Of a stretch of 16,129 bases of DNA, positions 4,423 to 8,512 are shown piece after piece (position 1 is the stretch's first letter; every line of letters starts with the position of its first letter). Position numbers and translations under genes: made by a program. Origin of the DNA: a virus; UHGV virus genome UHGV-0120322; one strand, 5' to 3'. The notes beneath the pieces were generated by a model, which had not been told where the DNA came from, ran no database searches, and saw only the letters and a program-made list of their open reading frames with translations.

Positions 4423-4533
4423 TTATACCTCTGAATCAATATCAACCTGGTGGTGAGCAATGGTTTCAACCATGTACCGGATGTGTTCTGCCATGCGCTC
4501 CTGAAACTCAACATCGTCATCAAACGCACGGGT
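4423..4533 (-). pseudogene. gam: gam fragment: only the C-terminal ~36 codons of lambda Gam ([36 protein letters not shown]) are present
   Basis: C-terminal 36 aa match lambda Gam; the N-terminal 48 aa of the 84-aa ORF (4423..4677) are unrelated and encoded antisense to P; junction at about 4531-4534. Confidence 0.85.
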
Positions 4534-5137
4534 ACAACAGGTAGCGCAGATCATCAATGGTGTGTTCAGCCAGTTACTGGCAACTTTCCCGGCGAGCCTG
4601 GCTAACCGGGACCAGAACGAACTGAACGAAATCCGCCGCCAGTGGGTTCTGGCTTTCCGGGAAAACGGGATCACCACGATGGAACAGGTTAACGCAGGAA
4701 TGCGCGTAGCCCGTCGGCAGAATCGACCATTCCTGCCATCACCCGGGCAGTTTGTTGCCTGGTGCCGGGAAGAAGCATCCGTTACCGCCGGGCTGCCAAA
4801 CGCCAGCGAGCTGGTTGATATGGTTTACGAGTATTGCCGGAAACGTGGCCTGTATCCAGATGCAGAGTCTTATCCGTGGAAATCAAACGCGCACTACTGG
4901 CTGGTTACCAACCTGTATCAGAACATGCGGGCCAATGCGCTGACTGATGCGGAATTACGGCGCAAGGCTGCCGATGAACTGGCCTGTATGACAGCGCGAA
5001 TTAACCGTGGTGAGGCGATACCTGAACCAGTAAAACAACTTCCTGTCATGGGCGGGAGACCGCTTAATCGTGTTCAGGCTCTGGCGAAGATCGCAGAAAT
5101 CAAAGCGAAGTTTGGGCTGAAAGGAGCAAGTGTATGA
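4532..5137 (+). pseudogene. peaD: Replication protein P, 5'-truncated (lacks about the first 30-40 codons and its own start/RBS); equivalent to peaD of DLP12
   Basis: Frame translates as [30 protein letters not shown]...KAKFGLKGASV, matching lambda P from about residue 33 to the C-terminus; no ATG or SD at the 5' end. Confidence 0.9.
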
Positions 5138-5991: not shown

Positions 5992-6261
5992 TTGAACGCG
6001 CTGAACTCCGCAGCCAACCCAGCCACAGTGCTGGCGCTGCTGGATGAGCTGGAAGCCAAAGACCAGAGGATTGCTGTGCTGACCGAATCGCTCAAGCAGA
6101 CGGTTTCAGGATACAAATCCTGCCTGCGTACCGGACATGAGCGCATTCTTGACCTTGGCGGTGACTGTGACGCGCCCAAAGTGATGATTGCAGGCAATCC
6201 TGACATTCAGCAGGCGCAGAAGCTGATCGCCGCCGCATCCGGTAAAGGAGAGGCATCATGA
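5992..6261 (+). CDS. Hypothetical phage protein, C-terminal part; frame open from 5965 and contiguous with 5848..5964 across a single TGA
   Basis: ORF-track entry with TTG start and no SD; 3' end overlaps the next gene start (ATGA), so it sits in a translationally coupled chain. Confidence 0.5.
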   Translation: MNALNSAANPATVLALLDELEAKDQRIAVLTESLKQTVSGYKSCLRTGHERILDLGGDCDAPKVMIAGNPDIQQAQKLIAAASGKGEAS

Positions 6262-6821
6262 GCACTATTACCAAACAATGGCTGCAGCAGAAAATTGCCG
6301 ACATGGAAGCAGCCAGAGATGAAATCCCGTTCGGTCTGGACGAAGGCGACAGCAACACGCTGGCGGCACTGCGTATCGCGCTGGCATCGCTCGAAGCGGA
6401 GCCTGCCATTCACCGGTGGCGTCGTGTGACCTCTGAGCCATACGGCCCCTATCCTTGGCATTATGGTGATTTTATCGGCTTCTCAAAGCCCGTTGATGGG
6501 ATTGAGGATGAGTATTTTTACTCCGCCCCGCCAGAGCCAGCCAATGCCGAAACCGTAGCCTGGCTGTGGTCACACAGGAAACACCCGAGCGAAGTCACGC
6601 TTGTTCGCCCTGAAGATGATGAGAGAGCGGAGGGTGCTCACTGGTCTGGCTGGAGTTGTCAGGCGCTTTATGCAGCACCGCCAGTTCCGGTATCTGTGCC
6701 CACATTCGAGAAATGGTGTGAGTTGACTGAGCAGAAACCTGTCGGATGGGTGCGTGATGCTATGAAAGAAGCGTATGACGGATGCCGCGACGCCATGCTT
6801 CAGGGTGCCGAAAAAGCCTAG
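6258..6821 (+). CDS. Hypothetical phage protein (187 aa)
   Basis: AAGGAG SD upstream of ATG; ATGA overlap with upstream ORF; no family recognised. Confidence 0.6.
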   Translation: MSTITKQWLQQKIADMEAARDEIPFGLDEGDSNTLAALRIALASLEAEPAIHRWRRVTSEPYGPYPWHYGDFIGFSKPVDGIEDEYFYSAPPEPANAETVAWLWSHRKHPSEVTLVRPEDDERAEGAHWSGWSCQALYAAPPVPVSVPTFEKWCELTEQKPVGWVRDAMKEAYDGCRDAMLQGAEKA

Positions 6822-6833
6822 TCGCCCACCACC

Positions 6834-7064
6834 ATGCAGACCGCGCCAGCCCTAGATTCTTCGCCAAAAATTTCCGAGTCGCCCGTCAGCAACTCTCCGG
6901 TGATTCCGGATGGTTGGGTGCTGGTTCCTAAGGAGCCAACTCCAGAAATGCGTGAGGCGTACCATCAGGCGCAGGAAGAGTGTGAAGATGGCGGTGGATT
7001 ATGGAGCCCAGACCACCAATGGAAGGCCATGATCGCAGCAGCACCGCAGCAGGAGGCGAAGTGA
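6834..7064 (+). CDS. Hypothetical ORF (76 aa) in the same frame as 6258..6821, separated only by a TAG and four sense codons; possibly a 3' extension of that gene
   Basis: No SD upstream of the ATG; same frame as the preceding gene. Confidence 0.4.
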   Translation: MQTAPALDSSPKISESPVSNSPVIPDGWVLVPKEPTPEMREAYHQAQEECEDGGGLWSPDHQWKAMIAAAPQQEAK

Positions 7065-7115
7065 TTATGTCGTGACAGCATAATTGCGATGTCAACGATA
7101 AGCAGAGGTTTGAAA

Positions 7116-7310
7116 ATGAAATCACAATCACCAGTGCAGCATGAAGTTAACATCGACGGCAAAGAGTATGTTGTCACAGTAGTCCAAACCGGCAAGTCAA
7201 CGTGGAGGGCATGGGGAGATTCCTGGGGGCGCCATATAGTCGAAACAGGTTCTAGCGAACATAGCGCGCTTTCTCATTGGAAAGCAAAAGCTTTAGTTAT
7301 GAATGGGTAG
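7116..7310 (+). CDS. Hypothetical small protein (64 aa), start at MKSQSPVQ
   Basis: GAGGT SD 6 nt upstream of ATG at 7116; the earlier ATG at 7089 has no SD. Confidence 0.5.
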   Translation: MKSQSPVQHEVNIDGKEYVVTVVQTGKSTWRAWGDSWGRHIVETGSSEHSALSHWKAKALVMNG

Positions 7311-7333
7311 CGCGGAAACTTTGAAGGTATAAT

Positions 7334-7359
7334 CCCCTCAAATAATCGAGGGGGTTTTT
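7334..7359 (+). terminator. Hairpin CCCCTC-N8-GAGGGG followed by TTTTT; intrinsic terminator or attenuator immediately abutting the next start codon
   Basis: GC-rich 6-bp stem plus T5 run; a perfect TATAAT hexamer sits at 7328-7333 just upstream; the 3' arm doubles as the only SD-like sequence for the 7360 ATG. Confidence 0.5.
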
Positions 7360-7869
7360 ATGTCTGGTTGGGATAACGGTATAGATGCAGTTTCTGCGAT
7401 TGCAGCTATCGCATCTGCGGTAGCAACTTATTTAGCATGGCGATCCTCAGAAGCTAGCAGGGCCACATCCGAAAAAGCTTTGCAGTTGCAAGGAAAGCAG
7501 TATTTGTACGAGACATTAAAAGCTTGCGCTGAGAGAGCGAATTCATACTCAAAAGGAAAGAAAGGGGCTGACTGGAGCTTTCATGACGCAGCCAATATTG
7601 TTCGATGTTTGAACATGGCAATGGGGAGCATAATAAATTACTCAGATACCAACAATCAGGATGCAATGAAAGGTCTGAAGCAATTCTTTATTAGCCAATT
7701 AAACATGGAGCTTTTTGAAGAGCTCAACTATGAGGTTGGGCCTGATGCCTTCTTTCACGGAGAGGAGCTAACCAGCATGACGAGCGATATTTACTCGCAG
7801 TGGTTAAACATTATTTCATTCTTTAACCTCATGATTGTCACAGATGATGACCTCGCCGATGAAACATAG
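7360..7869 (+). CDS. Hypothetical AT-rich moron protein (169 aa) with an N-terminal hydrophobic helix (IDAVSAIAAIASAVATYLAW)
   Basis: Long ORF with visibly lower GC than the flanking nin genes, its own upstream hairpin and TATAAT; no family recognised. Confidence 0.65.
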   Translation: MSGWDNGIDAVSAIAAIASAVATYLAWRSSEASRATSEKALQLQGKQYLYETLKACAERANSYSKGKKGADWSFHDAANIVRCLNMAMGSIINYSDTNNQDAMKGLKQFFISQLNMELFEELNYEVGPDAFFHGEELTSMTSDIYSQWLNIISFFNLMIVTDDDLADET

Positions 7870-8056
7870 CTTGATTGATTTTCCATAATCAACCCGCCAT
7901 AATCATGTCATCGGAGCCTGAACAACTCCGGTGACTTCTGCGCTAAACGGGGACGTTTATGCGCACATACAATCCAAACTCTCTTCTCCCTTCACAGATG
8001 CAGAAATGCACCTGCAATTCTTTGCATCTAGCGTTTGACCTCTGCGGAGGTGAAGC

Positions 8057-8512
8057 GTGAACCTCCCACAAGACGGTATCAAATTGCATCGCGGTAACTT
8101 CACCGCTATCGGTCAGCAGATCCAGCCTTATCTGGAGGACGGAAAATGCTTTCGCATGGTGCTTAAACCGTGGCGCGAGAGACGCAGTCTTTCCCAGAAT
8201 GCACTCAGCCACATGTGGTACAGCGAAATCAGCGAATACCTCATCAGCAGGGGGAAAACGTTCGCTACTGCAGTATGGGTAAAAGATGCACTCAAACACA
8301 CTTATCTCGGTTATGAAACCAAAGAACTGGTTGATGTCGTAACCGGTGAAATCACCACCATTCAGTCATTACGTCATACCTCCGATCTCGATACCGGAGA
8401 GATGTATGTCTTCCTGTGTAAGGTTGAAGCCTGGGCGATGAATATTGGCTGCCACCTGACTATTCCGCAGAGCTGCGAGTTCCAGCTGCTGCGCGACAAG
8501 CAGGAGGCGTAA
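8057..8512 (+). CDS. ybcN: YbcN-like protein (151 aa; DLP12 DNA base-flipping protein family), GTG start
   Basis: Translation [19 protein letters not shown]... recognised as YbcN of DLP12; GGAGG SD upstream of GTG. Confidence 0.85.

Follow-up and report, generated by a model that had tools for sequence, protein, structure and literature searches.

In phage T4, the long transcripts of genes e, soc, 49 and I-TevI bury the ribosome-binding site in a hairpin, and translated transcripts start at a late promoter that consists of a -10 element only and lies in the 5' strand of the helix; for gene e, a 100-fold effect has been reported (PMC3014915, a review that cites McPheeters et al. 1986 for the control of this gene). 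In phage lambda, the nin region carries the terminators tR2-tR4 (Cheng, Court & Friedman 1995, as cited in PMC8022706). Here we analyze a stretch of 16,129 nucleotides (nt) from the virus genome UHGV-0120322 (hereinafter the window), in which a 32-nt element at 7328-7359 combines a -10-like hexamer, a hairpin and a Shine-Dalgarno (SD) sequence immediately in front of a gene for an orphan protein of 169 amino acids (aa). We refer to this element as the cassette and to the genes that follow its copies as cargo. The explanation that we favor, and to which we give an even chance of being correct, is that the cassette is a promoter-in-hairpin switch that acts through occlusion of the SD, by the logic of T4 gene e, and heads an orphan, all-helical cargo. 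As a putative promoter-in-hairpin unit, the cassette, more than the gene, appears to be the more interesting result. Its components and the gene that follows it are listed below.

7328-7333, plus strand: a perfect -10-like hexamer, TATAAT, the last three bases of which (AAT) form the base of the stem
7331-7356, plus strand: a hairpin with a stem of 9 base pairs (bp), AATCCCCTC/GAGGGGGTT, and an 8-nt loop, found by terminator scan and RNA folding
7334-7339, plus strand: the 5' arm CCCCTC, read directly from the sequence
7340-7347, plus strand: the 8-nt loop AAATAATC, read directly from the sequence
7348-7353, plus strand: the 3' arm GAGGGG, with an additional G at 7354
7348-7354, plus strand: the SD sequence GAGGGGG, formed by the 3' arm of the hairpin and located 5 nt ahead of the ATG at 7360
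7355-7359, plus strand: a T5 run, a terminator-like U-tract that abuts the start codon at 7360
7360-7869, plus strand: the gene for the 169-aa protein WP_000017329.1, PHROG 1779, from open reading frame (ORF) translation and a profile match

The sequence-only reading of the window had noticed the TATAAT, the CCCCTC-N8-GAGGGG hairpin, the T5 run and the ATG, and all of these are found exactly where it had placed them. The stem, however, is longer than it had described: its 9 pairs, five of them G-C, cover 7331-7356 with an energy of -14.2 kcal/mol, so that the 3' half of the hexamer belongs to the stem. The 3' arm is indeed the only SD of the gene, as had been claimed, GAGGGGG (7348-7354) being the sole SD-like sequence before the ATG at 7360. 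With its GC-rich stem-loop and directly adjoining U-tract, the site looks like a predicted intrinsic terminator; the U-tract is short, and two of its five T's are able to pair into the stem. TATAAT alone is not above chance in the window (three occurrences versus 6.9 expected), and the composite of hexamer and hairpin occurs once versus 0.01 expected. With respect to the promoter of its own that had been attributed to the gene, the perfect -10 hexamer is present, but a -35 element and an extended -10 are not: the best -35 match at the cassette in the window has three of six positions, no extended -10 was found, and a consensus promoter scan called no promoter at 7328-7333. A search of Rfam with 6800-8300 returned no family at E<=1.

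The cassette is common to many unrelated cargo genes, so the view that it is private to the 169-aa gene had to be abandoned. The pattern TATAATCCCCTC-N6-10-GAGGGG matches at least 120 viral contigs, compared with 13 for a control with the hexamer shifted by 1 nt; at least 53 distinct upstream contexts are represented, and the cassette precedes at least seven unrelated gene families. The commonest cargo is an 85-aa homologue of DNA polymerase III theta (holE/hot-like; PF06440, E=6e-36), and the others are a 60-aa family (phrog_16632), the 169-aa family (PHROG 1779), a DUF1643 gene, a secreted TonB_C protein, a 192-aa protein with a hydrophobic N-terminal region and an 82-aa protein. In front of the Enterobacter, Phytobacter and Kluyvera homologues of the 169-aa protein, TATAAT-CCCCTC-loop-GAGGGG is kept and the upstream flanks differ; the Phytobacter copy has one base between the hexamer and the stem. 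In phage HK639, the identical hairpin, which carries a 'terminator' annotation, heads an orf60-theta-orf73 unit that sits just before the stretch upstream of ninB common to HK639 and the window. The 60-aa ORF of this phage (MSNEEMTPAEKYKAS..., phrog_16632; L219 2319-2501), which lies directly 3' of the cassette and is unannotated in the record, has a stop codon that overlaps the theta start (TAATG). The P1 gene hot, by comparison, has a different, Lpa-type late promoter and no cassette.

Several cassettes can be stacked within one phage, and genes of the 169-aa family repeatedly adjoin theta genes or truncated theta remnants (L257-L266, L007/L264, L388 4804-5519 and L391 4880-5462), some of these family members being only 24-29% identical. 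These neighborhoods suggest that the family has repeatedly inserted into theta, or replaced it, at this slot. The window gene begins with codons for MSGW, similar to the MSDW/MSQW with which theta begins. Given that one cassette precedes varied cargo, that cassettes are stacked and that theta remnants persist, the slot behaves as an exchange point for accessory genes. A perfect palindromic form with a 12-bp stem, TATAATCCCCTC-loop-GAGGGGATTATA, was observed at L130 9720-9750 and also in L030, L047, L081, L131 and L137; the L130 copy, flanked by a truncated theta gene and a convergent 163-aa ORF, resembles a bidirectional terminator. In our estimate, the explanation under which 7328-7869 would be one copy of a 'cassette + cargo' unit placed by enterobacterial lambdoid prophages at the head of the nin region is, taken as a whole, evenly balanced between right and wrong. 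A description of the cassette was not found in the phage literature searched, the coverage of which was incomplete; the exact string turned up only in an unrelated plant paper, and searches of the literature on nin-region terminators, lambdoid defence hotspots, HK620 linkers and prophage theta yielded nothing on this element.

The hairpin is under selection for pairing. In an alignment of 24 cassettes, which were preselected for TA[TC]A[AC]T, registered by hand and had their loops replaced, 91.7% of the cells are paired and 6 of the 9 pairs have changed on both sides; none of 500 shuffles reaches the observed values, and slid controls are 46-63% paired. The changes include CCCCTC/GAGGGG versus CCCTTC/GAAGGG (L257, with a wobble intermediate in L260) and AAT/ATT versus ACT/AGT. 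Upstream regions gathered by protein homology to the 169-aa family and theta, with regions that lack TA[TC]A[AC]T set aside, yielded 42 unique cassettes, the stems of which are mostly in the range of -13 to -15 kcal/mol.

The hexamer, in turn, is conserved beyond the requirement for pairing. Across the 24 aligned cassettes, position 5 alone varies, and this variation is compensated (A-U in 18 and C-G in 5); the unpaired 5' TAT is identical in all 24, and the 6 nt that precede it vary. Less biased evidence comes from a scan free of the hexamer (CCCCTC-N6-10-GAGGGG-N-TTTT-N-ATG), which returned 65 lambdoid-type copies along with generic terminators that have an A-rich upstream flank and lack an ORF. 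In 62 of the lambdoid-type copies, TATAAT directly adjoins the stem, one has TACAAT, and the remaining two, with CTATTA, belong to a decayed locus with a stop-interrupted theta gene. Distant versions, found in Serratia, Yersinia, Pectobacterium and bat-gut phages and at the theta remnant in L388, differ in sequence but keep the architecture of TATA(A/C)T, a pyrimidine-rich anti-SD, a loop and the SD. A T-run follows the hairpin in the cassettes of E. coli, Klebsiella, Enterobacter and Kluyvera but not in those of Serratia, Yersinia, Pectobacterium and the bat-gut phages, and the hexamer and hairpin are retained even in copies that lack the T-run or have a second SD. In two Proteus phages, theta lies beside opposite-strand genes, and TATACT is found ~23 nt before the ATG in both; the one of the two that was scanned has no canonical promoter upstream on the theta strand. 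Across the 53 upstream contexts, -35 scores are distributed no differently from those at control offsets and TGn is found a single time, that is, neither is enriched.

RNA folding in silico indicates how such an element might work. Opening of 7348-7362, from the SD to the AUG, is computed to cost 12-14 kcal/mol in an RNA that begins at 7250 or 7300 and 2-5 kcal/mol in an RNA that begins at 7340 or 7341; it is ~9 kcal/mol costlier in read-through RNA than in loop-started RNA, and the probability that the SD is unpaired in the folded read-through RNA is 0.00. Under the mechanism that we propose, the hairpin would block translation of the cargo in upstream-derived RNA and, when followed by the U-run of the E. 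coli/Klebsiella clade, would also terminate RNA polymerase that is not antiterminated. RNA polymerase that acts from the embedded -10 would start ~7 nt downstream, in the loop (predicted 7339-7342), and because such an RNA starts in the loop, it could not form the hairpin and would be translated. The cassette would insulate the cargo from upstream transcription and drive a translatable transcript of its own, and the cargo would be made only from the cassette's own transcripts, for example, in a repressed prophage. The core of this scheme, in which the read-through hairpin occludes the SD and can terminate transcription, and RNA started from the -10 leaves the SD free, had been put forward in the sequence-only reading, and as a prediction it now gains comparative and thermodynamic support. 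The promoter activity, start site, termination efficiency and lysogen-specific expression of the cassette are what we infer from these data.

The parallel with T4 gene e extends to several features. In both cases, the SD and AUG are sequestered in a conserved helix of upstream-initiated RNA (by prediction in the cassette), and the predicted difference of ~9 kcal/mol would give a large effect. The geometry would also fit, in that the cassette hexamer, a putative promoter without a -35, abuts or overlaps the 5' arm in 62 of the 65 copies. The T4 promoters, however, are gp55-dependent late promoters (TATAAATA) of a lytic phage in which synthesis is delayed, whereas the cassette hexamer is the sigma-70 consensus -10 and the phages are temperate. 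Also unlike in T4, in the E. coli/Klebsiella clade the cassette hairpin is at the same time a terminator-like site, one cassette is reused before many unrelated genes, and its function is inferred here. The resemblance to the lambda terminators tR2-tR4 and to the HK639 'terminator' lies in a GC-rich hairpin followed by a T-run between the replication/ren genes and ninB, a site that would make downstream expression depend on antitermination. As regards tR2-tR4, the likeness is one of position and form, and the cassette differs in that its hairpin includes half of a -10 hexamer together with the SD of the gene that follows and in that it has homologues without a T-run in other genera. In a more far-reaching version, which we consider possible but on balance rather doubtful, the 32-nt cassette would be an undescribed portable switch that unites a terminator, a sigma-70 -10 and a conditional ribosome-binding site, makes its cargo lysogen-specific and also serves as an exchange joint; under that version, the 169-aa family would be one of several lysogen-specific cargo proteins.

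The soluble domain of the 169-aa protein had been described as unassignable to any family. The protein is in fact catalogued as a member of PHROG 1779 (E=2.5e-77, 259.5 bits, residues 3-167 aligned with positions 2-169 of the 169-position profile); this orphan family has no assigned function, and membership therefore says nothing on mechanism. The family is rare, a search of 1.84 billion representatives at E<=0.001 having yielded 36 clusters, and the 29 close homologues of the protein are all enterobacterial where the source is named. Searches of Pfam and NCBIfam gave no match, no PADLOC family was found at E<=1, no significant or specific fold or sequence match was detected in PDB or BFVD, including in a profile search against PDB sequences, and the accession WP_000017329 had no match in the literature. 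A structure prediction, which the sequence-only reading had proposed as a check, was made with AlphaFold2 (AF2) from a 32-sequence alignment and gave an all-alpha model (predicted local distance difference test, pLDDT, 89.3; predicted template modeling score, pTM, 0.73) in which a long helix, residues 5-64, is followed by a bundle of shorter helices. Matches to HepT at E ~0.6, obtained with a pLDDT-69 model, raised the possibility of a HEPN toxin or abortive-infection protein but did not recur with the pLDDT-89 model, and this lead was rejected because the family alignments contain neither an Rx4-6H motif nor a conserved Arg/His pair.

The N-terminal helix is Ala/Ser-rich and hydrophobic, as the earlier proposal of a membrane anchor would have it, but it is marginal as an anchor, with a Kyte-Doolittle 19-mer maximum of 1.74 (1.0-2.5 across the family). 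Its acidic N-flank and basic C-flank suggest an N-out/C-in topology. Most likely, this putative anchor tethers a cytoplasmic helical bundle and the acidic C-terminal tail (DDDLADET; such a tail is common in the family) to the inner membrane. Small or hydrophobic residues make up most of the conserved positions (A20, A23, S33, Q44, L53, A57, N61, W72, P128 and W148), and because the family alignments contain no conserved catalytic-type residues or motif, the protein presumably acts by binding another protein. It remains an orphan for which a role in phage exclusion is possible.

The other features of the neighborhood are the following.

7116-7310, plus strand: orf64, a 64-aa ORF with a GAGG SD 7 nt before its ATG
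7870-7958, plus strand: a conserved intergenic stretch with a promoter-like TTGATT-17-CATAAT (7875-7903)
7959-8060 and 8057-8512: ylcH/orf33 and ybcN, respectively, 3' of the conserved stretch

The small gene upstream of the cassette, orf64, is probably real. It has homologues with 89% (L241) and 59% (L047) identity in which the reading frame is intact, and 30 of the 57 nucleotide differences from the L047 homologue fall at third codon positions. The family is rare (6 clusters), the gene is not annotated by the Prokaryotic Genome Annotation Pipeline (PGAP) in the identical SF-468 locus, and the protein has no match in Pfam, PHROG or NCBIfam and no PADLOC family at E<=1; for the two upstream ORFs, PADLOC likewise gave no family at this threshold. 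It had been suggested to act together with the 169-aa gene; however, the 59% homologue in L047 precedes a cassette with a DUF1643 gene, so orf64 is not a dedicated partner, and a two-gene system was rejected on this ground.

The position in the nin region and the low GC content of the gene, both noted previously, were borne out: the gene lies between ren/Ea22-like ORFs and ylcH-ybcN, and the GC content is 0.41-0.46 over 7100-7850, compared with 0.51-0.58 upstream and 0.48-0.53 downstream. The segment 7000-8000 matches a lambdoid prophage of E. coli SF-468 with 100% identity. Among 5,426 complete E. coli genomes, 23 carry all 1001 bases of it with an identity of at least 99.7%; the cassette with its gene (7328-7869) reaches an identity of 99% or more in 26 genomes. 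In SF-468, the order is P, ren, small ORFs, Ea22-like genes, WP_000017329.1 (annotated 'hypothetical protein'), ylcH, ybcN (NinB-like, PHROG 72), ninE, ybcO, rusA and Q. A divergent homologue of the 169-aa protein is encoded in ~175 further genomes, among them an O104:H4 carrier, where it again lies directly before ylcH-ybcN; in PhiR26_1 and PhiR5_1, the divergent homologue shows 44-46% amino-acid identity. The slot before ylcH-ybcN is occupied by theta in HK639 and by other genes elsewhere. In PhiR26_1 (L002 1-1245), a gene annotated as PD-lambda-1, a named defence system, is found ~1.6 kb upstream of the divergent homologue and is encoded on the other strand, with Rha between them. In a Klebsiella-type phage, a 270-aa ORF just upstream of a cassette-theta unit (L034 8446-9258) has an N-terminus that is TIR-like by eye only, and at L391 5673-8389, an S-type pyocin gene (PF06958) and a small ORF on the opposite strand directly follow a distant family gene.

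The conserved stretch 7870-7958 also holds two repeats, one direct (CCATAATCA) and one inverted (CGGAG..CTCCG); the stretch is found 3' of members of the 169-aa family in several genera, and in the phage 82 record X92588, the equivalent stretch is annotated with a putative -35/-10 and a 'possible regulator-binding site'. A moron, as defined by Juhala and Hendrix, is a unit of promoter, gene and terminator. The locus resembles one in that an accessory gene with deviant GC content and a promoter-like element of its own lies between conserved genes of a temperate phage, and to this extent, that of an inserted gene of deviant composition, the label of moron that it had been given is apt. It differs with respect to the terminator, as no terminator-like site was detected between the stop (7869) and ylcH (7959), the next candidate, 7999-8016, having a 5-bp stem inside ylcH. 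Here, the terminator-like hairpin is upstream and overlaps the promoter-like hexamer, and instead of an individual promoter, the unit has a conserved, portable cassette as its control element.

The prophage itself is degraded. Compared with that of SF-468, it has lost ~4.8 kb (at window 4423-5137), such that a 3' gam fragment on the minus strand is joined to a 5'-truncated P; the deletion removes pL, N, the repressor, pR, cro and O. A similar gam-P junction was found in only 2 of the 5,426 complete E. coli genomes, in each case as two pieces that cover 83% of the query with ~95% identity. Because pR is deleted, read-through from pR is impossible in this copy; despite the loss of pR and N, the cassette and gene are 100% identical to those of intact prophages. 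The Ea22-like gene, which encodes 268 aa in SF-468, is split by a G-to-T nonsense mutation at 6819 into the ORFs 6258-6821 and 6834-7064.

Several considerations weigh against the favored explanation. Hand registration and replaced loops bias the covariation count toward structure; the invariance of the hexamer in the 24 cassettes is partly built in because these were preselected for it, and pairing alone accounts for its 3' half; and because many copies are close relatives, part of the conservation is due to shared descent. The SD of the short RNA still pairs weakly with downstream sequence in silico, the transcript start at 7339-7342 rests on prediction, and given that no -35 or TGn is conserved, the element should be a weak sigma-70 promoter. 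A strong terminator would be expected to have a longer T-run than T5, the 169-aa protein yielded no functional homology of any kind, and the hydrophobicity of its helix is marginal. Perhaps the element is only what the annotators of HK639 call it, simply a terminator: a plain intrinsic terminator of the nin region, analogous to tR2, within which the SD of the next gene happens to lie, with TATAAT kept by the A-U extension of the stem and by recent shared ancestry and with the gene expressed only from N-antiterminated pR transcripts during lytic growth. The scan finds the site terminator-like, the stem of ~-14 kcal/mol is followed by a T-run, AAT pairs with ATT or GTT, a -35 is lacking, and the palindromic version lies between convergent genes in the manner of a bidirectional terminator. 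This explanation nevertheless appears unlikely, considering that the 5' TAT is unpaired and yet the same in 24 of 24 aligned cassettes, next to upstream bases that vary; that hexamer and hairpin persist without a T-run in Serratia, Yersinia, ZF40 and the bat-gut phages; that TATACT persists before stand-alone theta genes without a co-directional upstream gene; and that a stable hairpin would still occlude the SD in antiterminated RNA, so that expression from pR only would be poor.

An improbable alternative, although one that is compatible with a regulatory role, is that the cassette is chiefly a recombination joint or linker at module boundaries, used in Red/RecET-type swaps, with regulation being secondary. 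Linkers of this kind were reportedly proposed by Clark et al. in 2001 for HK620. A single ~30-nt sequence does join 53 upstream contexts to at least seven cargo families, family genes repeatedly abut theta genes or truncated remnants, and cassettes are stacked within one phage; but a joint of this type predicts uniform conservation rather than compensatory changes in the stem and a freely varying loop, and what the distant versions keep is the architecture (hexamer, anti-SD and SD) and not the sequence, which argues for selection on function. As for the cargo, the proposal that the 169-aa protein, alone or with orf64, is a superinfection-exclusion or abortive-infection determinant fits an accessory gene of low GC content in a slot whose occupant varies among temperate phages, with a probable membrane anchor, with PD-lambda-1 in PhiR26_1 and the TIR-like ORF (by eye) of L034 in neighboring slots, and with a sequence that is identical in a prophage without an immunity region, consistent with retention for host benefit. 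We regard it as distinctly unlikely: the searches of PADLOC (even at E<=1), Pfam, NCBIfam and PDB folds and sequences, which might have substantiated the link to exclusion or abortive infection drawn in the sequence-only reading, were all negative, with no similarity to a known defence protein; neither catalytic-type residues nor a HEPN Rx4-6H motif is conserved in the family; inheritance of orf64 is not coupled to that of the 169-aa gene; and the commonest occupant of the slot is theta, a replication accessory protein and not a defence gene. Two further identities of the hairpin were rejected by reasoning alone, namely a boxB/nut site, given that the length and sequence of the loop vary freely, and an RNase III site, which would require a longer stem.

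If the embedded -10 is active, the promoter-in-hairpin switch would explain how accessory genes can be silent in lytic read-through RNA and yet expressed in lysogens. The signature of TATA(A/C)T, anti-SD, loop and SD would then be a means to find lysogen-expressed cargo in enterobacterial prophages, including the widespread phage theta (holE/hot-like) genes, and the short conserved joint would help to explain the mosaicism of the nin region. The value of the 169-aa protein is that of a candidate for phenotypic screening rather than that of an established defence gene.

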